Made by a program: the position numbers and the translations under genes. The notes under the pieces are model-generated. The model had not been told where the DNA came from. It saw only the letters and a program-made list of their open reading frames with translations, and did not search any database. From IMG/VR virus record IMGVR_UViG_3300028840_004348: DNA of 34,639 nt, one strand, 5' to 3'. Numbering within the stretch: the first letter of the stretch is position 1; every line of letters begins with the position of its first letter. This document shows positions 9,156 through 31,001 of this stretch, piece by piece. This stretch comes from a virus.

Positions 9156-10007
9156 TTATCGTCGTCCACGATGGCCCCCTCCTTCCAAACCGAGCGCCTT
9201 GCGCTTCGCCTCTTCAATGACCTTCCAAGCCTCGTAGTAGCGGTTGAAATGGTCTTCGAGGGCCATGATGAGCCGTCCCATGTTGGCCTTGTAGAAGCCG
9301 GCGCAATTGACGCAGCCGCACTCGACGATCTTCCATTCGTCGTCGACCATGCAGACGTCCATCACGAAGGCGTCGGCGAGCTGGAAGACCTTGACCATCT
9401 TCTCGCAGAACTCTCGGGCTGCGGGATCGATAGCTCCGCTTTGCACGACCTGTGTCCCGAGCTTGTAGAGACTCCCCGTGACGATCTCACCGCCCACCAC
9501 CCAGAAGCGATACTCCTTTTGGATCTTCTTCACCGAGGCGACCTGGATGGGCGTCAGACTGCTCAGCGACGAAGTGTGGCCGTCCGTGAGCTTCCGCTGC
9601 TGGAACTCGCGCCAGCCGTCCTCGTCGAACACCTGGCCGTTGAAATCCTTGGTATCAGCGCACGGGCGGATGAAATAGGCCTGCTTCTCCCACTTCCAGT
9701 CGTCCCGGAACTTCCGAAGCTCCGAGTCCCAGTTGAGAAGATGCTCCCGGTAATGGTTGCGATACACGAAGAAGTGATGATTCGCGTTCACCAGAACGCC
9801 CGGCACCCAGTCGAACTTCTTGGCCAACCGGACCATCTTGAGCGAGCCGAACACGAAGACATCCCGCCGCTTGGTCTGAACTTCGAAGTTCTCGACGAAC
9901 GGCAGAACTTTGACGACTTCCCAGTCGAGCTGAAGACGCTCCAACGTCCGCGTCAGAGCATCATACCCTTCCTCGCGGAACACGTTCTCTTGTATCACAT
10001 AGAACAT
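9156..10007 (-). CDS. ATP-grasp superfamily protein (ligase of unknown substrate)
   Basis: Track ORF 9156..10049 trimmed to ATG 10007, because the annotated start lies inside a TTGACA-17-TATAGT promoter at 10021-10050. ATP-grasp-like motifs are present: FIRPCADTKDFNGQVF, RFWVVGGEIVTGSLYK and AFVMDVCMVDDEWKIVECGCVNCAGFY. Confidence 0.55.
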   Translation of the reverse strand: MFYVIQENVFREEGYDALTRTLERLQLDWEVVKVLPFVENFEVQTKRRDVFVFGSLKMVRLAKKFDWVPGVLVNANHHFFVYRNHYREHLLNWDSELRKFRDDWKWEKQAYFIRPCADTKDFNGQVFDEDGWREFQQRKLTDGHTSSLSSLTPIQVASVKKIQKEYRFWVVGGEIVTGSLYKLGTQVVQSGAIDPAAREFCEKMVKVFQLADAFVMDVCMVDDEWKIVECGCVNCAGFYKANMGRLIMALEDHFNRYYEAWKVIEEAKRKALGLEGGGHRGRR

Positions 10008-10020
10008 CTCTTGCGCTCTG

Positions 10021-10050
10021 ACTATATAGAGGAAAGTTTCCCCTGTCAAG
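10021..10050 (-). promoter_or_regulatory. promoter TTGACA-17-TATAGT for the ATP-grasp gene
   Basis: Minus strand reads GCTTGACAGGGGAAACTTTCCTCTATATAGTCAGAGCGCAAGAGATG. Confidence 0.45.
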
Positions 10051-10072
10051 CAGACAGATCGACAGCTTCTGC

Positions 10073-10456
10073 CTACTCCGGCTGCTTCACTTTCATCCGC
10101 TGGCTCACACTCTCGATGTGGTCGATGGTCTTGCCGGCATCGTTCAAGATGTAGGCTTCTCCGTCGAACACGATGTGTGTTTCCTGATTCCCCTTGCGGA
10201 CTTCGACTACTGTCGCACCGCTCCAGCTGCTCGGGCCGGAGATGAGTTCACCTCCACGACGACATTCCGAAGGCATCAACCAAACCCCATCTTCGGGTGG
10301 AACAGGAAGAATACCGTCCTCGGTCATCCGCTCCAAGTCCTCCGAACTGAGGTACGCCCAAATCTTGATGCTGTCACCTTCGCAATAGAACCAGGGCGTC
10401 TCTCGTGGACCTCCCCAACATCTGTACTTCGAGCTGGCGTCGATCTTGATGATCAT
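10073..10456 (-). CDS. hypothetical protein
   Basis: Track ORF 10073..10552 trimmed to ATG 10456, which has an AAAGGAGAAAGG SD. The longer form overlaps tRNA-Tyr. Confidence 0.5.
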   Translation of the reverse strand: MIIKIDASSKYRCWGGPRETPWFYCEGDSIKIWAYLSSEDLERMTEDGILPVPPEDGVWLMPSECRRGGELISGPSSWSGATVVEVRKGNQETHIVFDGEAYILNDAGKTIDHIESVSQRMKVKQPE

Positions 10457-10528
10457 GACCTTTCTCCTTTCTGCGGCCTTCTGGCTGACTATCTTGCTGT
10501 CGATCTGTCTGGGGATAATATACAGGAT

Positions 10529-10615
10529 TGGGAGATGGTGGAATCGAACCACTTGCCTCGTGGAGGAGCGGGTTTACAGCCCACCGCAGGCCCAGCCTGC
10601 CTTAGAGCACCTCCC
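10529..10615 (-). tRNA. tRNA-Tyr (anticodon GTA), class II with long variable arm
   Basis: Folded by eye. The acceptor stem is GGGAGGT/ATCTCCC and the anticodon loop is CUGUAAA. The T-loop is TTCGATT. The gene is 87 nt with discriminator A and no encoded CCA. Confidence 0.6.
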
Positions 10616-10617
10616 GT

Positions 10618-10706
10618 TGCACGGGGTGGGATTCGAACCCACACTGTCTCTTAAGCGTTGCCCTGGGGCCTGAACCCAGCGCCTCTACCAGTTGGGCTAC
10701 CCGTGC
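10618..10706 (-). tRNA. tRNA-Leu (anticodon CAG), class II
   Basis: The acceptor stem is GCACGGG/CCCGTGC and the D-stem is 3 bp with an 11-nt D-loop (CAACTGGTAGA). The anticodon loop is TTCAGGC. The long variable arm is present. The gene lies 2 nt (AC) upstream of the tRNA-Tyr 5' end. Confidence 0.55.
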
Positions 10707-10741
10707 GCTATCTAGATGCTAATTAGCGTCTAATTAGCATC

Positions 10742-10817
10742 TGGTGGACAGGGACGGAGTCGAACCGCCTACACCCGGAACTTCAATCCGGTGCTCTACC
10801 AGTTGAGCTACCTGTCC
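10742..10817 (-). tRNA. tRNA-Phe (anticodon GAA)
   Basis: A 76-nt cloverleaf with acceptor GGACAGG/CCTGTCC and D-stem GCTC/GAGC. The anticodon loop is TTGAAGT and the T-loop is TTCGACT. CCA is encoded. Coordinates were anchored on track ORF 10791. Confidence 0.65.
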
Positions 10818-10819
10818 GT

Positions 10820-10892
10820 TGCGCGTGGAGGGATTCGAACCCCAACATCCGGACCCTCAGTCCGGCGACTCTGCCAGTTGGCCTACACGCGC
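10820..10892 (-). tRNA. tRNA with anticodon GAG (Leu-decoding) but class-I length (73 nt, short variable loop)
   Basis: The acceptor stem is GCGCGTG/CACGCGC with discriminator A73, and the D-arm is Leu-type (3-bp stem, 11-nt loop CAACTGGCAGA). The anticodon stem is CCGGA/TCCGG and the loop is CTGAGGG. The T-loop is TTCGAAT. The isotype needs tRNAscan-SE confirmation. Confidence 0.45.
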
Positions 10893-10959
10893 GTTGTGTT
10901 TCACCTGCTGTCAGCAACCTCCGTTGTCGCTCACTTTCGAACGAATCTGATCAACCAAG

Positions 10960-11033
10960 TGCGACCGCCGGGAGTCGAACCCGGAACATCCTGCTTTTGA
11001 AACAGGCGACTCTGCCAGTTGGCCTACGGTCGC
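10960..11033 (-). tRNA. tRNA with anticodon CAA (Leu-decoding), class-I length (74 nt)
   Basis: The acceptor stem is GCGACCG/CGGTCGC with discriminator A, and the D-arm is identical to the GAG tRNA. The anticodon loop is TTCAAAA and the T-arm is CCGGG-TTCGACT-CCCGG. Coordinates were anchored on track ORF 10997. Confidence 0.45.
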
Positions 11034-11037
11034 TCGA

Positions 11038-11110
11038 TGCGTCCGCCAGGATTCGAACCTGGAACCCCCGGTGTTTAAAGCCGGTGCCTCTGCCGTTGAG
11101 CCACGGACGC
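11038..11110 (-). tRNA. tRNA with anticodon TAA (Leu-decoding), class-I length (73 nt)
   Basis: The acceptor stem is GCGTCCG/CGGACGC with discriminator A, and the D-arm is similar to the other two short Leu-type genes. The anticodon loop is TTTAAAC, with a C-A mismatch closing the stem. The T-arm is CCAGG-TTCGAAT-CCTGG. Confidence 0.4.
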
Positions 11111-11114
11111 TCGG

Positions 11115-11188
11115 CAGGAGAGCCAGGATTCGAACCTGGGTTTGAGGACTTGGAAACCTCCGTGCTGGACCGCTCGCACTACTCTCCC
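11115..11188 (-). tRNA. tRNA-Trp (anticodon CCA)
   Basis: The acceptor stem is GGGAGAG/CTCTCCT with discriminator G and the D-stem is GTGC/GCAC. The anticodon loop is TTCCAAG, with an imperfect anticodon stem. The T-arm is CCAGG-TTCGAAT-CCTGG. Confidence 0.5.
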
Positions 11189-11190
11189 GT

Positions 11191-11263
11191 GGTGACCGAC
11201 GAGACTTGAACTCGCAACGACCGGGGCCACATCCCGGCGCTCTACCAGTTGAGCTACGGCCAC
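11191..11263 (-). tRNA. tRNA-His (anticodon GTG), no encoded G(-1)
   Basis: The acceptor stem is GTGGCCG/CGGTCAC with discriminator C, and the anticodon loop is ATGTGGC. The T-loop is TTCAAGT. The nucleotide 5' of G1 is T, so G-1 is not templated. Confidence 0.55.
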
Positions 11264-11265
11264 AG

Positions 11266-11350
11266 CGGAGGACGCAGGGCTCGAACCTGCACCGGGATGA
11301 ACCGGACGACGCCTTAGCAGGGCGCTGCGATACCATTCTGCCAGTCCTCC
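11266..11350 (-). tRNA. tRNA-Ser (anticodon GCT), class II
   Basis: The acceptor stem is GGAGGAC/GTCCTCC with discriminator G, and the anticodon loop is CTGCTAA. The long variable arm is present. The T-arm is GCAGG-TTCGAGC-CCTGC. Confidence 0.55.
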
Positions 11351-11415
11351 ACATTAAAATTTTCCTCCATTTTCTTTAATAGTTCGGATCCTAATTAAAA
11401 CTTTCTTCAATACTG

Positions 11416-11488
11416 AGTCCCGAGCCGGAATCGAACCGGCGTCTGAGGATTTGCAGTCCCCCGCTTGAACCTGCTCAGCTACCGGGAC
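11416..11488 (-). tRNA. tRNA-Cys (anticodon GCA)
   Basis: The acceptor stem is GTCCCGG/TCGGGAC with discriminator U, which is typical for Cys. The anticodon loop is CTGCAAA and the T-arm is GCCGG-TTCGATT-CCGGC. Coordinates were anchored on track ORF 11465. Confidence 0.55.
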
Positions 11489-11491
11489 AAG

Positions 11492-11563
11492 CAGGGCCGG
11501 GCGGAGTCGAACCGCCGTACTCGGGTCCAAAGCCCGATGCTCTACACGTTGAGCTACGACCCC
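11492..11563 (-). tRNA. tRNA-Gln (anticodon TTG)
   Basis: The acceptor stem is GGGGTCG/CGGCCCT, with two G-U pairs, and the discriminator is G. The anticodon loop is CTTTGGA and the T-arm is GGCGG-TTCGACT-CCGCC. Confidence 0.5.
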
Positions 11564-11565
11564 GG

Positions 11566-11655
11566 AGGAGGGCGAGGGATTCGAACCCCCACGCCGGGAC
11601 AACGCCGACGACCGCGATTTTCGAGACCGCTCCAATACCGTTCTGGCAGCCCTCC
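11566..11655 (-). tRNA. tRNA-Ser (anticodon CGA), class II
   Basis: The acceptor stem is GGAGGGC/GCCCTCC. The anticodon arm, GCGGT-CTCGAAA-ATCGC, matches the canonical Ser(CGA) arm. The long variable arm is present. The discriminator reads U, which is atypical for Ser. Confidence 0.5.
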
Positions 11656-11700
11656 GATTGGTAAATCTTTCCATCACTTAACACTTCTTTACCGTTCGAG

Positions 11701-11787
11701 CGGAAGCGCCTGGACTCGAACCAGGACCACGGGAAACCGTGCTCTCGGCCTTCCAAGCCGGGGCCTTACCGTTGAGGCTACGCTTCC
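11701..11787 (-). tRNA. tRNA-Ser (anticodon GGA), class II
   Basis: The acceptor stem is GGAAGCG/CGCTTCC with discriminator G, and the anticodon loop is TTGGAAG. The long variable arm is present. The T-arm is CCTGG-TTCGAGT-CCAGG. Confidence 0.55.
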
Positions 11788-11800
11788 GAACTGGAAACGA

Positions 11801-11911
11801 TTAGCTTAGATAAAGCAGTGATTGATGCTGGATAAACGAGGAGAGACACCAGAGGCGGGGAGCCTTGGCGGTGGGGGCGATCATCTTTCCGATTCGCTTT
11901 CGACGTTTCAT
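11801..11911 (-). CDS. possible 36-aa basic micro-ORF inside the tRNA array (speculative)
   Basis: ATG at 11911 is preceded by GGAGAGACCG. It encodes MKRRKRIGKMIAPTAKAPRLWCLSSFIQHQSLLYLS within the 138-nt spacer between tRNA-Pro and tRNA-Ser(GGA). It is absent from the ORF track because it is too short. Confidence 0.15.
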   Translation of the reverse strand: MKRRKRIGKMIAPTAKAPRLWCLSSFIQHQSLLYLS

Positions 11912-11925
11912 CGGTCTCTCCTCGG

Positions 11926-11999
11926 TCCGGGCGAGAGGATTTGAACCTCCAACCTCTAGATCCCGAATCTAGCGTGCTACCAGATTGCACTACACCCGG
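11926..11999 (-). tRNA. tRNA-Pro (anticodon CGG)
   Basis: The acceptor stem has the C1-G72 pair characteristic of bacterial Pro, CCGGGTG/CGCCCGG, with discriminator A. The D-stem is GTGC/GCAC and the anticodon arm is CTAGA-TTCGGGA-TCTAG. The T-loop is TTCAAAT. Confidence 0.55.
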
Positions 12000-12104
12000 A
12001 TAGTCTACAGCCCCTCGCGGGGTGGTGTAGGCTTCCGGGCTGGTCGTGCTGTCTGGTTCTTCTTCATCGCACGCTTCTTCGCGCCGCTACGCGGCGAAGT
12101 CTCA

Positions 12105-12133
12105 AATATAGAAGAAGCCCTCAAAGAGATCAA
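12105..12133 (-). promoter_or_regulatory. candidate tRNA-operon promoter TTGATC-17-TATATT (the -35 overlaps the GNAT stop codon)
   Basis: Minus strand reads GCTTGATCTCTTTGAGGGCTTCTTCTATATTTGAGA. This is followed by a GC hairpin, CTTCGCCGCGTAGCGGCGCGAAG. The tRNA-Pro 5' end is about 100 nt downstream. Confidence 0.35.
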
Positions 12134-12624
12134 GCAGAAAGTTCAGAGTCGAGCTTTTCCTTCAAGCCGGTGCCGCTCTCCGTGGTCATCCCCCACTGGA
12201 TGTCCTCATAGGGAATCTCGTTCTCGCGCATCAGCTCCTGGATCAACGCGCGGCCTACTCCCTTTCCCTGCGCCTCGGGCTTGACCTCGATCATCTTGAG
12301 ATGCGTCTCGCCGCGCCAGAGAGTGTAGTCCACGTAGCCGAGCCCTTCGCCGGTCTTTGCGTCCTTGGCGACGATCCAGGCGTCCCACTGGTCGCCGAGG
12401 GCATCACCCCCGTGCTCGAAGGCGAGGGCGTCGCCCTGCTGGGCGTTCCGACCCGTTACGAAAGGAAGCAGCCGAAGAAGAAGCATCCACTGAGAGAACG
12501 CGTTCTCCTCTTCGAAGCGTCTTTTCTCCCGCTCGATGGCCCGCTCAGGTTCATCCTCTTCGATCTCGGGCACCTCGTCACCGATGCGACGAAGGGCTTC
12601 CGTGTTCAGTCCGTGGAGCCGCAT
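12130..12624 (-). CDS. GNAT-family N-acetyltransferase
   Basis: Track ORF 12130..12756 trimmed to ATG 12624, which forms a TGATG overlap with the upstream stop and has a GGGAGGAC SD. It carries the acetyl-CoA motif IEVKPEAQGKGVGRALI (the Q/R-x-x-G-x-G/A pattern). The N-terminus begins MRLHGLN. Confidence 0.6.
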   Translation of the reverse strand: MRLHGLNTEALRRIGDEVPEIEEDEPERAIEREKRRFEEENAFSQWMLLLRLLPFVTGRNAQQGDALAFEHGGDALGDQWDAWIVAKDAKTGEGLGYVDYTLWRGETHLKMIEVKPEAQGKGVGRALIQELMRENEIPYEDIQWGMTTESGTGLKEKLDSELSA

Positions 12625-13277
12625 CAGTCCTCCCAGACCGAATCGATGAGGTCGTAGATGAGATCGACCTGCTCGTCGGCGAAGTGCCAGCGGACATCGA
12701 TGTTGTCGTCGGCCCATTTCTTCGGATCGCCGTCTAGCTCCTCGGACATCGCGCACCAGTCGGCCACCATCTCCGCGATGTCGAGGTCGCCCATCCCGGT
12801 ACCGTCGATGACCTCGTCGGGAGCTGCATCCCGGTCGTCCTCGTCGACCACATCGAGCGTCTCCATCTGATGATACTCAGGGTGATGCTTGCTGTTCAGG
12901 ATGTGGTGCTGCGTGGCGACGTTGATCGCGTCCTCCATCCCCCCGGGCAGCTCGCACTCGATGCCCTCATCCTCGCACTTGTAGCGCCAGGTCAGCCAGA
13001 TGTACGGCTCCAGCTCGGGCTCTTCGAACTTGATCTGGTCGTGTTCTTCACCGCGCTCGATCAGGCCGTCGAAACCGTCCCAGGCATCCTCGATCTTCTT
13101 GCAGTACTTCTGCACGCGCTCGATGTGCTTGTTGGTCCGGTCGTAGAAGTGCTGTTCCATCTCGTCGGTGATCTGCTGAGCGACACGCCGAAGGCTGTCA
13201 AGCGCGCCCTGGACAGTCATGCCACTACGCATTCCGACCCGGATGATCGCGTTCCGGTCGAGTCCCCGAAGTCTCAT
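12624..13277 (-). CDS. hypothetical His-rich protein (possible HD-like metal-dependent hydrolase)
   Basis: Track ORF 12624..13334, which opens with TTG, trimmed to ATG 13277, which forms an ATGA overlap. Motifs seen are KHIERV, EEHDQIK (an HDxxK arrangement) and ATQHHILNSKHHPEYH. The N-terminus begins MRLRGLD. Confidence 0.4.
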   Translation of the reverse strand: MRLRGLDRNAIIRVGMRSGMTVQGALDSLRRVAQQITDEMEQHFYDRTNKHIERVQKYCKKIEDAWDGFDGLIERGEEHDQIKFEEPELEPYIWLTWRYKCEDEGIECELPGGMEDAINVATQHHILNSKHHPEYHQMETLDVVDEDDRDAAPDEVIDGTGMGDLDIAEMVADWCAMSEELDGDPKKWADDNIDVRWHFADEQVDLIYDLIDSVWED

Positions 13278-23427: not shown

Positions 23428-24861
23428 TTACTCGAACTTCTTCGAGTCTACCACAGCGAGAGCCGCGCCGATGCGGCAGAGGCAGTCGTAGTAGTCCTCG
23501 CTGAGATGGTTGCCCGCGCTCTCGTGGCCCAGCTCATGGATGACGAGCCGAAGGATCGACTCGACCGGCCCGTTGAACCAAGCTCTCCCCAGGATCGCCA
23601 CGTTGAACGCGATCCTCCGATGGCCGTACTGCGCAGCGCAGGTCGCGTCCGGGGATTCCATCATCGTGACCGTCACCCCGAAGTCGAAGGCAGCCCGCGA
23701 CACTGCTTTCGAAAGGCGTTCGACCCGGTGCATCCCGGCGGTCCAATCATCGCGGGGAATGGTACGTCCATCCGCCACACCCTGCCGGAAGATCACCGAA
23801 GAAGCCGGAATGGCCTCGGCTTCCCGCATCCGCGCCCACTCTTCGCGGCTCATCTCCTTCGGTGAGACGACGTGGTACCCGTTGGCGATCCCCCGTTCCC
23901 GTCCGTAGTCGTCGCCGGGAGTCAGGACCATGCGGCGTTCGCCCCATCGAAGATCGGCAATGGTAAGGAGCGCGTCGTGCTCGATGCGTTCGTCGGCGGC
24001 TCCGTCCCGCACCCATGCTTCGGAAGCATCTTCCTTGCGGAGCTGCGACACCATGACGTTGAGCACCTCGGCTCGCACGTCCTGGAGGAACGCCGGCTGC
24101 ACGTTATCCCGGTCGGAGTTCAAGGGAACGCGCTGACCGATGTTGTAGTGCCACCTGTCGCCCGTGGGCATCACCGGGATACCCAGCTCGTAGATACTGG
24201 GCTCCTCGCCAGGCGCGGGCTCGTAGACCTCGATGAAGGTCTTCCGACGCGTCTGTCGATACTGCCCCTCCTCGTTCTCGAACTCCGTCTGGAGCGTCAC
24301 ATCGTGGAGCACGTCGTCCGGCATCCGGGGCTCGACCGACTTGCCGTTCACCCGGTACTCGATCTGCTGCGGCATCAGGATCGTCTTGGCGACCCGAACG
24401 CACTCCTTGATCTCGTTCCGGGTCATCGGGATGTACGCCTCGAATACCGAGCCGCTGTCCCGCTTCACGCGCTTGCGCTCTTCCCGCGTCCCGTCCTCGT
24501 GGAAGACCACGGTTCCGGTCGTAGTCGAGACGGTCGCCTTCTTCGCCAGTGACAGGACCTGCTTGTCGCCCATGTTGAAGCGCCCGGCCTTGGTCGGATC
24601 CTTGCGCTTCCGCGTGTGGGCGAAGAGAGTGAAGGCGTGCCGCAGGTCGTAAAAACCTTCGGGCGCGTCGTCCGCGCAGACCACTTGGGCCAGCGGTTTC
24701 CCCGGTACCGGCTTGATGGTGAGCTTGCAGATGGTGACGCCCGCTTCGTCGCGGACGTTCTGCACCAGCTCCTTGACGATGAACGACTTCGGTCGGTGCT
24801 CGTTCATCTGGCCGAGACCGGCCTTGTCGGCCCCGAACCATCCTTTCTGTCGTTTTGCCAT
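23428..24861 (-). CDS. GHKL/Bergerat-fold ATPase (MutL / Topo VI-B-like N-terminus) with C-terminal HExxH metal-binding motif
   Basis: Track ORF 23428..24867 with the start moved to the second ATG, 24861, which sits 8 nt from an AAGGAGGG SD. Motifs present: RPKSFIVKELVQNVRDEAGVT, which resembles the MutL N-box (VVKELVENSLDAGAT); DDAPEG, a G1-like box; GRFNMGDKQVLSLA, a G2-like box resembling GFRGEAL; and a C-terminal VIHELGHESAGNH...CLCR. Confidence 0.55.
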   Translation of the reverse strand: MAKRQKGWFGADKAGLGQMNEHRPKSFIVKELVQNVRDEAGVTICKLTIKPVPGKPLAQVVCADDAPEGFYDLRHAFTLFAHTRKRKDPTKAGRFNMGDKQVLSLAKKATVSTTTGTVVFHEDGTREERKRVKRDSGSVFEAYIPMTRNEIKECVRVAKTILMPQQIEYRVNGKSVEPRMPDDVLHDVTLQTEFENEEGQYRQTRRKTFIEVYEPAPGEEPSIYELGIPVMPTGDRWHYNIGQRVPLNSDRDNVQPAFLQDVRAEVLNVMVSQLRKEDASEAWVRDGAADERIEHDALLTIADLRWGERRMVLTPGDDYGRERGIANGYHVVSPKEMSREEWARMREAEAIPASSVIFRQGVADGRTIPRDDWTAGMHRVERLSKAVSRAAFDFGVTVTMMESPDATCAAQYGHRRIAFNVAILGRAWFNGPVESILRLVIHELGHESAGNHLSEDYYDCLCRIGAALAVVDSKKFE

Positions 24862-28237: not shown

Positions 28238-28544
28238 CGCAGTCGCATTCTTCCGTTCGTGGCTTCCCGCAAGTCGCGCACCACCGGGCTTCACTATGGA
28301 CCTGTTCGATCCATGCCACGGTCTCGGCCCAGCTTTCGTTGCCCCGTTGATGGGGCCACGCCCTCTCTCCTTTCGCGAGCGCGTTCGTGATGGCAGTTAT
28401 TTCCTCGATGATTTCCTCGCGCTTCTTCTCCACATAGTAGTCGATGAGCTGTTCCGGCGTCGCGTCGTAGACGATAATGTCATCCACGATAGTAGAGAAG
28501 ATGGCGAACTTGCCGCTTGGCATCTTGACGATTCGATGACCCAT
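28224..28544 (-). CDS. hypothetical protein with C-terminal CxxC...CDC
   Basis: Track ORF 28224..28562 trimmed to ATG 28544, which forms a TGATG overlap with the HD gene stop. Confidence 0.4.
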   Translation of the reverse strand: MGHRIVKMPSGKFAIFSTIVDDIIVYDATPEQLIDYYVEKKREEIIEEITAITNALAKGERAWPHQRGNESWAETVAWIEQVHSEARWCATCGKPRTEECDCDARS

Positions 28545-29080
28545 CAGTCCGCCATCCCCCACAGGATGTCCAGGGCGCGCTTGTAACGCCGCTCGATGCT
28601 GCGCTCCTGCTCGGGCAGCCCCTCGATCCGGGAAAGGTTGTCCTGGAGATCAGCGAGCTTCACGCGCAGCGCGATGCGCGCCGCCTCCTGCATGTCTGAA
28701 TTCGGGTACACCGACTTGCTGGCTTCCTTGATCGACCGGATGTACTGGACATAGGTCGGTCGATGCACCCCGGCTTCCGCAGGCGGACGAGTGAGCAAAC
28801 GGACCGCCTCGACGACGCTGACGCTGAATCCTTCGATACGCAGGTCTTCCGGCGTGGCGTCAGTGTCTTCGCAGACATCGTGAAGCACCGCGACTTTCAT
28901 CGCATCCAGATCCGGCCCGAGAATCGGCAGTCCGACGCCTTGTCGATTCTCTTTCCAAGCTACCGCCACCATGACGCGGAGCGGATGCAGGATGTAGGGA
29001 TGCCCCTGCTTGTCGACTTGGCCTGCGTGAGTATTGGCGGCAAGCTCGATGGCTCGCTCGATTGATCCGTCCCGTCTCAT
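28544..29080 (-). CDS. HD-domain phosphohydrolase, SpoT/Mesh1-like (candidate (p)ppGpp or nucleotide pyrophosphohydrolase)
   Basis: Track ORF 28544..29146 trimmed to ATG 29080. The alternative start at 29146 has no SD and adds a hydrophobic junk N-terminus. Motifs present are AANTHAGQVDKQGHPYILHPLRV and AVLHDVCEDT, which follow the H...HD...D pattern of the RelA/SpoT hydrolase HD fold. Confidence 0.55.
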   Translation of the reverse strand: MRRDGSIERAIELAANTHAGQVDKQGHPYILHPLRVMVAVAWKENRQGVGLPILGPDLDAMKVAVLHDVCEDTDATPEDLRIEGFSVSVVEAVRLLTRPPAEAGVHRPTYVQYIRSIKEASKSVYPNSDMQEAARIALRVKLADLQDNLSRIEGLPEQERSIERRYKRALDILWGMAD

Positions 29081-29146
29081 TTTTTCATTTACCTTCTTCT
29101 TGAAGCTGTTCCATCCAACGATTAACCAGCGCACTCCAAACTTCAT

Positions 29147-29346: not shown

Positions 29347-30405
29347 TTACCACTCCTCTTCGCAGTTATTGCAATAGTACCGAGGCTCGTCATCCTCGGC
29401 ATCCGGGTTCGCATCCTCGATGCCAGTGCTGCCGCAGGCCGGGCAACGCACCGTGTCATCGTCCGCGTCCTCTTCGTCGTCCGCCCTATCGTCAATGTCG
29501 TCGACGTGATACGCGCGGTTCTCCTTCTGCCGGTAGTCCTCCGCGAAGGTGTAGAGTTCTTCCTTCATCTTCCGCTCGACGGCCACCATCTTGTCCCAAA
29601 GGTCGGGGTCGCGGAGCGCCTGGACGGCCTCGGTCACCAGCTGATCGAGGGCCTTGGGCTCGACCGCGTCCAGCTCCCAGCTGGAGTCGCCGTACTGCTC
29701 GATGTACTTGTCGGCGCGGGAGTCGGTCAACTTGGCCGGGTTCTCGGGAGGCCGGAGTTCCTCGACCTGGGAGTACTTGAGCGCCAGCCGCTCGAAGGTC
29801 ACCGGGTGCCCCGAGAACAGCGAGAGGCGCTCCTCCACATCACGGTCCATGTCCAGACCGCTGGGGTCGTGGTCGCCCAGGTACAGGATGTGGATGCGCT
29901 TGTCGTCGTTCTTGTAGAGCCGCTTCAGCCGCTGCCCTATACGGTACATCATCGACTGGCTGGAGTAGCCCTTGTTGGCCGTGAAGTTCACGTCCAGGCG
30001 ACGGCAGACGGGGATGAGGACGCCTTCGAGCGCCTGCTTCTCCACCATGACCTCGATGTGGTTCGACTGCCCCTCCCACTTGTCGATAGCGAAGGAGCGC
30101 GCCGCCGCCTCGATGATGTCCGCCGGGCTGTCCCAGTGCGACGGCGACTCAGTCTTGCGGCCACGGTCGACGATCATGTCCCAGTCGATCAGCCCGGCCA
30201 TGCGCGCGTCGTTCACGAGCGTCCCGAGCGTCTTGTACTCCTTCTGGTTGTTCGGGATGATGTCCTTGGACACCAGCTGATAAAAGAGTTGCCGCAACGT
30301 CAGGTCGTAGCCCTGAGCCTTGTAGCTGTCCAGAATCGCGTTGATGGTTTGGAGCAGCTGGAGCTTATCATCTCGAAAGTCCCGCTCGATGAATGCTTGT
30401 TTCAC
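29347..30405 (-). CDS. Topo VI subunit A / Spo11-like protein (stand-alone 'Mini-A'-type)
   Basis: Track ORF with a GTG start, an AAGGAGAG SD and a TTGACA-17-TAAGAA promoter. The winged-helix region TLRQLFYQLV matches the catalytic R-x-x-F/Y-Y motif. The Toprim region carries HIEVMVEKQALEG (the conserved Glu), TANKGYSS (the KG motif) and ILYLGDHDPSGLDM (the DxDPxG motif). Confidence 0.6.
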   Translation of the reverse strand: MKQAFIERDFRDDKLQLLQTINAILDSYKAQGYDLTLRQLFYQLVSKDIIPNNQKEYKTLGTLVNDARMAGLIDWDMIVDRGRKTESPSHWDSPADIIEAAARSFAIDKWEGQSNHIEVMVEKQALEGVLIPVCRRLDVNFTANKGYSSQSMMYRIGQRLKRLYKNDDKRIHILYLGDHDPSGLDMDRDVEERLSLFSGHPVTFERLALKYSQVEELRPPENPAKLTDSRADKYIEQYGDSSWELDAVEPKALDQLVTEAVQALRDPDLWDKMVAVERKMKEELYTFAEDYRQKENRAYHVDDIDDRADDEEDADDDTVRCPACGSTGIEDANPDAEDDEPRYYCNNCEEEW

Positions 30406-30429
30406 GCGATTGCTCTCCTTTTTCCCAGA

Positions 30430-30458
30430 TTCTTAACATATGCTGAGGGTTCTGTCAA
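30430..30458 (-). promoter_or_regulatory. sigma70-like promoter TTGACA-17-TAAGAA for the Mini-A gene
   Basis: Minus strand reads TTTTTATATTGACAGAACCCTCAGCATATGTTAAGAA, then AAGGAGAG and GTG. Confidence 0.45.
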
Positions 30459-30470
30459 TATAAAAAGATA

Positions 30471-31001
30471 CTACACCCTGGAAGTGCGCCGCCCAATCCG
30501 GTAGACGTGCGTGACCGAAATGCCAAACTTGGATGCCAACTCCTTACGAGGAACTCCCTTTTCGAATTGGAGGCGCAGCATAGCAACCTGCTGATCCGTG
30601 AGCTTCGATTGTGGATGATGCTCTCCTCGAAGTCCTGATCCCCTTCCGCGAACAAAGGGATTCAGGTGCGGTTGCGTGCGGGCACCATTACGGTCGCCAG
30701 AGGCGGTGCGCCCCTTTCGATCCCGATCAACGTTGTTATCACGTTGAGTACCCAGAAAAAGATGATCTACACGTACACATTTTGGATTATCGCATTGATG
30801 CAGAACATGAATACCCTTAGGAATCTTCCCGTGTTCCAGCATCCACGCGACCCGATGCGCATAGAGAGGGTGGGAACTTAGCTTCCGAGCTTGAAGCAGC
30901 CCATATCCGTTCCGGGTCACATAGCCCGTCCACTCCCAGCACTTCGAGGTCTTGACTACTTTGCGCCAAAACCGTTCAACAAATTCAACAGGAAACTCCA
31001 T
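30471..31001 (-). CDS. HNH endonuclease with C-terminal HTH (homing-endonuclease-like)
   Basis: Track ORF. It carries the HNH core, CWEWTGY...HRVAWMLEHGKIPKGIHVLHQCDNPKCVRVDHLFLGTQRDN, and a C-terminal HTH, LTDQQVAMLRLQFEKGVPRKELASKFGISVTHVYRI. It has no SD. Its ATG lies 5 nt after TATGTT in a TTGATA-17-TATGTT promoter. Confidence 0.65.
   Translation of the reverse strand: MEFPVEFVERFWRKVVKTSKCWEWTGYVTRNGYGLLQARKLSSHPLYAHRVAWMLEHGKIPKGIHVLHQCDNPKCVRVDHLFLGTQRDNNVDRDRKGRTASGDRNGARTQPHLNPFVRGRGSGLRGEHHPQSKLTDQQVAMLRLQFEKGVPRKELASKFGISVTHVYRIGRRTSRV

Follow-up and report, generated by a model that had tools for sequence, protein, structure and literature searches.

The viral DNA analyzed here, a stretch of 34,639 nucleotides (IMG/VR record IMGVR_UViG_3300028840_004348; referred to below, at its full length, as the window), encodes a protein of 352 residues which, judged from its sequence, is clearly a Mini-A, i.e., a stand-alone homologue of the A subunit found in type IIB topoisomerases. 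Mini-A proteins were described by Takahashi et al. 2020 (PMC7671362) as virus-encoded proteins of ∼300 residues, which comprise only the second part of the 5Y-CAP domain, plus a Toprim domain. Their motifs are RxxF/YY, then a glutamate and DxDxxG, and then a diagnostic C-terminal T2BI box (xWELDAL), and no Bergerat-fold partner (“Mini-B”) was found near their genes (PMC7671362). The window protein has the short core (∼295 residues, the median length of its homologues being ∼295-301), the RxxF/YY motif, the Toprim glutamate with DxDxxG, and the xWELDAL box; it resembles known members and is encoded by a virus. The motifs quoted in an initial annotation of this DNA, made from the letters alone (RQLFY, VMVEKQA, ANKGYSS and GDHDPSG), are all present in the translation; the Mini-A signature, SSWELDAV, was absent from that list. 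The identity then proposed, a stand-alone Topo VI-A/Spo11-like “Mini-A”, is borne out by a protein-family match, by the T2BI box and by profile alignment with Top6A. The protein is also, as had been stated, too short to be a Topo VIII fusion, with 352 residues, no ATPase domain and WELDAV as its box.

The family match was to PHROG 6247 (“DNA topoisomerase”), in which residues 1-298 aligned with positions 2-299 of 303 at E 4.2e-108, and a chance open reading frame (ORF) is thereby excluded. Sequenced phages were searched as a set of 50,697 phage records, and relatives were detected by tblastn in 85 records of phages and archaeal viruses at 20-47% identity (most at 37-47%), many of them annotated as “DNA topoisomerase”. 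They include Xylella phages Salvo and Sano, Pseudomonas phages NP1, PaMx25 and JG012, Salmonella Chi-like phages and Roseobacter phage RDJL. Most were matched at E 1e-52 to 5e-77, among them Listeria phage LWP01 (44.8% identity), Pseudomonas NP1/PaMx25 (43%) and Salmonella BP12C (42.9%), and a relative in the archaeal Haloarcula virus HCIV-1 was found at 27% identity (E 4e-11). Among 1.84 billion representatives searched with HMMER, the family numbers 11,637 proteins at E ≤ 1e-3 and 7,501 at E ≤ 1e-10, counted at the level of 50%-identity clusters, and IMG/VR holds more than 590 Mini-A loci. The initial annotation had called such proteins poorly studied in viral settings, which overstates their obscurity, as the description of the family dates from 2019/2020 and its members abound in sequence space. 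Within so large a family, the Mini-A core of the window protein is therefore ordinary.

Several members of the family depart from this simple architecture. In one locus (L093, 8024-9003) and in Roseobacter phage RDJL Phi 1 (HM151342.1, 14391-15214), Mini-A is read as two overlapping or adjacent ORFs; in the latter these are gp26/gp27, and a frameshift, a pseudogene and a sequencing error are all possible. Two long representatives, P0369 (662 residues) and P0373 (677 residues), show two profile-matching stretches with ∼360 residues inserted near core residue ∼120, and several representatives of 330-420 residues carry an insertion near core residue ∼160-200. These insertions could be inteins or inserted domains.

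Conservation was assessed in 50 close homologues, in 13 sequences that include members of 22-24% identity, and in a pooled set of 134 Mini-A proteins. In the pooled set, R38, Y42, E122, K123, G146, D178, G183 and E244 were invariant (134 of 134), D180 was kept in 133, Y147 in 131 and W243 in 130, and position 41 was Y or F in 131. The window protein thus retains all of the DNA-cleavage residues (R, Y, E and DxD) of the Topo VI-A type. The sole D180 exception among the 134 is ORF35 of HCIV-1 (L163, 520-1551), which reads DFNPSG, the second Asp of DxD being replaced by Asn. The proposal that Mini-A is a catalytically inert DNA-binding or scaffold protein, which has merely kept the Topo VI-A fold, accords with the fact that no activity was ever shown for any Mini-A. 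It is nevertheless highly improbable, as the invariance of R, Y, E and DxD in 134 diverse members, and likewise in thousands of clusters, is the pattern expected of an active enzyme rather than of a scaffold.

The relationship to Topo VI was examined with a reference set of 80 top6A loci taken from genomes of archaea and bacteria, which yielded 64 full-length proteins that were compared with Mini-A by hhalign. The numbering of this Top6A template recovers the published residues R99, Y103, E197, D249, D251, R338 and E340. The Toprim core aligned at E 8.1e-5, with GDHDPSG on TDGDPYG and D178/D180 on D249/D251, and the profile built from 134 Mini-A sequences aligned over residues 7-295 with Top6A 73-355 at E 5.9e-4. 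The full-length alignment places TLRQLFY on TLREAYY and pairs R38/Y42 with Top6A R99/Y103; the N-terminal domain alone gave the same R/Y pairing at E 0.006, versus 0.17 for a reversed-sequence control. Because hhalign pairs both R38/Y42 and D178/D180 with Top6A residues, the catalytic Tyr and DxD are conserved by position, the point on which the initial annotation had made its identification depend. Against a single Spo11 sequence, VEKQAL was placed on VEKEAV (E122 on E233) in a weak alignment (E 0.2), and an equivalent glutamate motif, VVEKDAV, is present in S. shibatae Top6A. In the course of assembling the reference set, full top6A genes were observed in many bacterial metagenome-assembled genomes, including those of Phycisphaerae, Planctomycetota, Gammaproteobacteria, Myxococcales and Verrucomicrobiota (L188, L190, L202, L203, L210, L211 and others), which fits reports of Topo VI occurring sporadically among bacteria.

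Taken at the level of sequence, these alignments point to a Top6A fold with the catalytic residues at equivalent positions, and to a remote kinship between Mini-A and Top6A, which is best supported for the Toprim half. The Top6A alignment starts at residue ∼73 of the template, and just 37 residues precede R38 in Mini-A, which lacks the Top6B-binding part of 5Y-CAP. No gene of the top6B family adjoins Mini-A; the sole GHKL gene in the vicinity, 4.5 kb away, carries a protease domain.

It is reasonably probable, in our estimation, that Mini-A is a Topo VI-A/Spo11-like DNA-cleaving enzyme that serves phages in replicating or recombining their DNA. As with Top6A and Spo11, a homodimer would cut DNA by Mg2+-dependent transesterification, with Tyr42 supplied by one protomer and the Mg2+ site by its mate, and the 5'-phosphotyrosyl link left behind could be resealed. 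Since the Mini-A chain has neither an ATPase nor a transducer (no ATPase domain was found in the Pfam scan or in the AlphaFold2 (AF2) model), the activity would be ATP-independent cutting, nicking or relaxation, and not strand passage. The resulting breaks or nicks may start recombination-dependent replication, or the enzyme may solve topological problems. The WELDA box possibly gates the tyrosine, a function suggested for the T2BI box; in Top6A, the latter is packed against the region of the tyrosine (PMC7671362).

A role in replication or recombination is suggested by the company that the gene keeps in other phages, namely helicases, recombinases, nucleases, polymerases and methylases. In a Pfam census of the 116 nearest same-strand neighbors of Mini-A, no recurrent partner domain was detected; the mix comprised SNF2 and other helicases, integrases, YqaJ and ERF recombinases, PD-(D/E)XK nucleases, methylases and ParB, and DNA polymerase, primase and VRR-NUC recur within 10 kb. 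Mini-A therefore stands alone, within modules for DNA replication and recombination. The same neighbors bear on the alternative that Mini-A is a replication initiator, which nicks the phage origin and stays covalently attached, like the HUH endonucleases of rolling-circle replicons. This role was hypothesized in print for the skuldviruses of Asgard archaea, small circular viruses with no other replication protein, and a conserved Tyr with a metal site would permit a nick with a covalent link. For the phage considered here it is very unlikely: the window belongs to a genome of ∼188 kb with a transfer RNA (tRNA) array, and in many Mini-A phages a DNA polymerase, a primase and a helicase of the phage's own are encoded next to Mini-A, so that a dedicated rolling-circle initiator is not needed. 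Origin-like repeats were not seen by the Mini-A gene, where no search aimed at them was made.

Several observations weigh against the assignment of Mini-A as a Topo VI-A/Spo11-like cleaving enzyme. Neither the window protein nor five distant Mini-A members gave a Pfam match to TP6A_N or Toprim at E ≤ 10. Among Protein Data Bank sequences, phmmer and two profile hmmsearches (one with a close and one with a diverse profile) missed Top6A and Spo11, and Foldseek with the AlphaFold model of Mini-A gave no link to Top6A. A lack of hidden Markov model (HMM) matches to Topo VI-A or Spo11 is what the initial annotation had itself named as counting against it; this was formally the outcome with HMMER, and the relationship is rescued by the two hhalign results. 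Per-residue confidence in the alignment at Y42 is low. Dimerization, metal dependence and the covalent intermediate would carry over by analogy from homologues, and biochemical activity has been reported for no Mini-A, the function being given as unknown or hypothetical in reviews up to December 2024 and in a preprint of February 2026.

Alternatively, Mini-A could be a hydrolytic Toprim nuclease like MksG/JetD, which would cut, e.g., host or competitor DNA with no covalent tyrosine and no resealing. DUF2399, which we take to cover the C-termini of JetD proteins, gave a sub-threshold match over the DxD region (E 0.063), and Mini-A has no ATPase of its own. DUF2399 is described in Pfam as a Toprim-like domain of uncharacterized bacterial proteins. 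This alternative is nonetheless improbable, for R38 and Y42 are kept in every one of the 134 proteins, down to 22% identity, and the WELDA box is invariant as well. MksG and JetD, which resemble Topo VI-A and are the executors in the Mks and Wadjet systems, are not known to have a catalytic tyrosine. Moreover, no SMC-like genes of Mks or Wadjet type lie nearby, and a PADLOC scan gave no defence-system match for Mini-A or for the GHKL protein described below, its matches among the neighbors being generic SNF2 and HNH ones.

The feature that sets the window protein apart is its C-terminus, in which an addition of 55 residues, composed of an acidic linker and a four-cysteine zinc ribbon, extends beyond the ∼295-residue core. 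Nearly all of its relatives have a total length of ∼295 residues. The acidic tail with CPACG...CNNCEE recorded in the initial annotation was found as described, with acidic residues 302-317 followed by C321/C324 and C345/C348, and a zinc ribbon is probable. Matches to zinc-ribbon families were all sub-threshold (PF23451, E 0.0012; PF14803, E 0.007; NF047912, E 1.7e-4), and the AF2 model places strands at 329-331 and 343-345 with a predicted local distance difference test (pLDDT) score of 76-88. Of the 120 best homologues, only P0002 and P0003 have the four-cysteine tail in common, and in 79 viral loci it was found in one (L045, CPSCGS...CQNCAH) and partly in another (L040). Cysteine-rich tails occurred in 3 of 129 diverse Mini-A representatives, amid many variable appendages, of which acidic C-termini were the commonest. 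The zinc-ribbon tail is thus uncommon in a family whose core the window protein otherwise shares. The linker and ribbon may be a lineage-specific add-on, by which the enzyme is probably anchored on DNA or on a partner protein.

A possible facultative partner is encoded in the window 4.5 kb downstream of Mini-A. It is a protein of 479 residues, in which a GHKL + transducer module resembling a topo II ATPase is fused to a Wss1/SprT-like zinc protease. This 479-residue protein had no match in the Pfam and PHROG scans, and PF13589 was found in some of its homologues. Invariant in the family are the Bergerat motifs (N-box E33, N37 and D40; G1 D66...G71; G2 G95...G100) and a C-terminal H444-E-x-x-H448-x5-H454 motif. 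Structural matches of the N-terminal ∼240 residues (match scores in parentheses) were led by African swine fever virus topo II (16.4), ParE (16.3) and phage T6 topo II (16.2), followed by Hsp90/TRAP1 (15.1), MORC2 (14.5), MutL (14.4) and Top6B (13.6 and 13.3), and thereby confirm the GHKL ATPase that had been assigned to positions 23428-24861. Those of the C-terminal domain were BepA (8.7), Wss1 (8.1), minigluzincins (7.9-7.4) and Spartan (6.7). A literature search found no paper on a fusion of GHKL with SprT/Wss1, and the fusion, unusual in itself, looks previously undescribed. Its domains suggest topoisomerase-type ATP gating and proteolysis of DNA-protein crosslinks.

In several other loci (L009, L045, L076, L088, L093, L094 and L095/96), Mini-A and the ATPase-protease are encoded on the same strand, 0.4-1.6 kb apart. 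Both gene orders were seen, and the linked loci share almost no other genes or DNA, either among themselves or with the window. In L045, the gene for a very divergent member of the ATPase-protease family (11522-12829; hhalign probability 95%, E 2e-8) lies ∼440 bp downstream of Mini-A (9995-11080), and this locus is the only other sampled viral one with the same four-cysteine zinc-ribbon Mini-A. There are thus hints that the zinc-ribbon tail and the ATPase-protease go together, in two lineages only. Mini-A might accordingly work with the 479-residue protein, either as the A-type half of an ATP-driven type IIB-like enzyme, to which the latter would contribute the B-like subunit, or in a “cut and clean” pair, in which the Wss1/SprT-like protease would remove Mini-A covalently stuck on DNA. 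Trapped topoisomerases are among the DNA-crosslinked proteins that Wss1 and Spartan degrade.

Such a partnership is, on the available counts, unlikely. The initial annotation had called for a survey of co-occurrence with a GHKL partner, and the survey had a mixed result: the link was found in several unrelated loci, but the ATPase-protease lies within 10 kb in only 3 of 80 viral Mini-A loci and is absent from the remaining 77. Conversely, Mini-A was found in 5 of 80 ATPase-protease loci, and an iterated HMM search added none. Among the sequenced phages, a homologue of the ATPase-protease was present in 1 of the 50,697 records (versus 85 for Mini-A), that one having no Mini-A within the available 20 kb on each side, and at least 84 of the 85 Mini-A records have no such homologue. 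Either family is accompanied by SNF2 helicases about as often or more often, and the lack of the Top6B-binding part of 5Y-CAP in Mini-A likewise speaks against a B-like subunit. The low co-occurrence rules out a general “Mini-B” role for the GHKL protein. What is possible is a lineage-specific functional link. The specific proposal that, in a minority of large phages, the ATPase-protease is the dedicated partner of Mini-A, the two forming a two-component type IIB-like enzyme or a cut-and-release system in which the zinc ribbon would serve for docking, is likewise unlikely.

The features of the Mini-A gene and of its surroundings are collected in Table 1. The ORF of 352 residues given in the initial annotation was recovered with exactly its span in the program-made ORF list, on the minus strand, with its start at 30405, a GTG start codon and the stop codon inside the span, and the identical gene was called on two independent European Nucleotide Archive assemblies (contigs of 188 kb and 26 kb). 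A TTGACA element, held earlier to drive the gene as its own promoter, is indeed present at 30458..30429 on the minus strand; the word “driven”, which rests on a consensus match, is an overstatement. Three promoter-type sites were found in the region, versus 1.3 ± 1.1 in shuffled sequences, by consensus matching only. The AlphaFold model of the protein has a pLDDT of 89.3 and a predicted template modeling score of 0.76. In its N-terminal region, helices at 12-30, 37-46 and 54-69 are modeled with pLDDT 84-96, the hhalign counterpart being Top6A 74-160, and a long C-terminal helix comes after the WELDA box.

Table 1. Features of the Mini-A gene, its protein and its neighborhood in the window.
Feature	Position	Strand	Basis or remark
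Mini-A gene	29347..30405	-	GTG start 30405-30403; PHROG 6247 E 4.2e-108 over residues 1-298
AGGAG, Shine-Dalgarno-like	30415..30419	-	9 nt 5' of the GTG start; read from the letters
Sigma-70-like promoter match, TTGACA, 18 nt, AAGAAT	30429..30458	-	Consensus scan, 10 of 12 positions; predicted
N-terminal 5Y-CAP-like helical/winged-helix region, residues ∼10-90	30136..30378	-	AF2 helices and hhalign
RQLFY, residues 38-42, R38 and putative catalytic Y42	30280..30294	-	Codons CGG CAA CTC TTT TAT
Toprim domain, residues ∼113-225	29731..30069	-	
VMVEKQA, residues 119-125, predicted Toprim metal-binding Glu E122	30031..30051	-	Sequence and alignments
ANKGYSS, residues 143-149	29959..29979	-	Conservation; aligns with Spo11 GKGFP
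GDHDPSG, residues 177-183, predicted DxDxxG metal-binding motif D178/D180	29857..29877	-	Conservation and hhalign
SSWELDAV, residues 241-248, T2BI box (xWELDAL) diagnostic of Mini-A	29662..29685	-	Motif defined in PMC7671362
Acidic linker, residues 302-317, DDIDDRADDEEDADDD	29455..29502	-	Translation; pLDDT ∼60
Probable four-Cys zinc ribbon, C321, C324, C345, C348	29362..29445	-	Sub-threshold zinc-ribbon matches and AF2 strands
GHKL + transducer ATPase fused to Wss1/SprT-like zinc protease, 479 residues	23428..24867	-	Possible facultative partner
SNF2-family helicase, 794 residues	24901..27285	-	Longest ORF reading 895 residues
HD-domain phosphohydrolase	28544..29146		phrog_990 E 2e-34
HNH endonuclease	30471..31001	-	PF13392 E 1.7e-16
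ORF of 401 residues	31285..32490	-	No Pfam/PHROG match
ORF of 700 residues	32494..34596	-	No Pfam/PHROG match
Array of 14 tRNA genes	10529..11999	-	Tyr, Leu x4, Phe, Trp, His, Ser x3, Cys, Gln, Pro

The gene lies, as had been noted, between an HNH endonuclease and an HD hydrolase. The former, located directly upstream, is a free-standing protein of homing type (HNH_3 with a helix-turn-helix). Only 1 of the 80 other Mini-A loci has a homologue of it nearby, and the gene is therefore probably a mobile insertion rather than a partner. In those 80 loci, homologues of the other window neighbors were found once (DUF2786), never (HD) and 11 times (SNF2). The HNH, HD and DUF2786 proteins and the two large upstream ORFs, each present in 0-1 of the 80 loci, were thus rejected as conserved partners. 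For the latter two ORFs, conservation extends only to the sister contigs L001 and L002, and the product of the longer one contains many acidic and basic stretches of low complexity. Among the recurrent neighbors of Mini-A, SNF2 helicases are the most frequent; that of the window has an ATPase core resembling those of the defence helicases ZorD, DpdE and DrmD (E 1e-34 to 1e-39), preceded by an N-terminal region of ∼330 residues with no match.

PHROG families occur throughout the window and, together with the SNF2 helicase, a DUF2786/DUF7168 protein and the tRNA array, point to a large phage. The array shares its strand with the protein genes, and such arrays typify large lytic phages. Neither a capsid nor a terminase gene was recognized within the window, whose viral assignment is strong but indirect. 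When 14.6 kb of the window were compared by megablast with the 50,697 phage records, no match was obtained at the DNA level; hence, this is not a known phage.

On the whole, the interpretation given in the initial annotation is supported. Mini-A is among the most abundant virus-encoded topoisomerase-like families (>11,000 clusters at 50% identity) and bears on the origin of Topo VI and Spo11. The family's definition gains little from the window gene; the handles that this gene offers are the zinc-ribbon variant and the minority linkage to the ATPase-protease. If that linkage is functional, it would provide a testable entry point into the role of Mini-A and, if the pair is a two-component enzyme, it would represent the “Mini-B” that the founding paper sought and did not find.

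Among known systems, the A subunit of Topo VI (M. jannaschii 1D3Y, S. shibatae 2ZBK and M. mazei 2Q2E) has in common with Mini-A the Toprim fold, the positions of R/Y, E and DxD, and a glutamate-containing box C-terminal to Toprim. In contrast, Mini-A is ∼60-70 residues shorter at the N-terminus, has no TP6A_N match and no adjoining Top6B gene, carries WELDA where Topo VI A has an R-x-E-x-x-S box, and is extended at the C-terminus by a further helix and a tail. Spo11 (yeast core complex, 8URQ/8URU) aligns with Mini-A in its VEKxA, KGF/Y and DxDPxG motifs and also cuts DNA with no ATP-driven strand passage. Unlike Mini-A, however, it is eukaryotic and meiotic and needs partners (Rec102/Rec104/Ski8, TOPOVIBL), and the similarity taken alone is not significant (hhalign E 0.2). 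MksG and JetD are likewise Toprim-based, separate polypeptides with no GHKL domain, whereas Mini-A keeps Tyr42 and has neither SMC-like partner genes nor a PADLOC match. Topo VIII is also encoded by a mobile element (a plasmid), but combines GHKL and transducer with the A-like half, fused in one chain or split, and has an RVELNAM box; Mini-A, of 352 residues, has neither of these domains, and its box reads WELDAV. The nearest relatives are the Mini-A proteins themselves (PMC7671362; PHROG 6247), which are viral and have the same ∼295-residue core with no GHKL domain, as well as RxxF/YY, E + DxDxxG and xWELDAL. From these the window protein differs in its 55-residue acidic and four-cysteine tail, seen in 2-3 of 120 homologues and in 1-2 of 79 viral loci, and its genome differs from the founding description, in which no Bergerat-fold ATPase was found near Mini-A, by having one 4.5 kb downstream.

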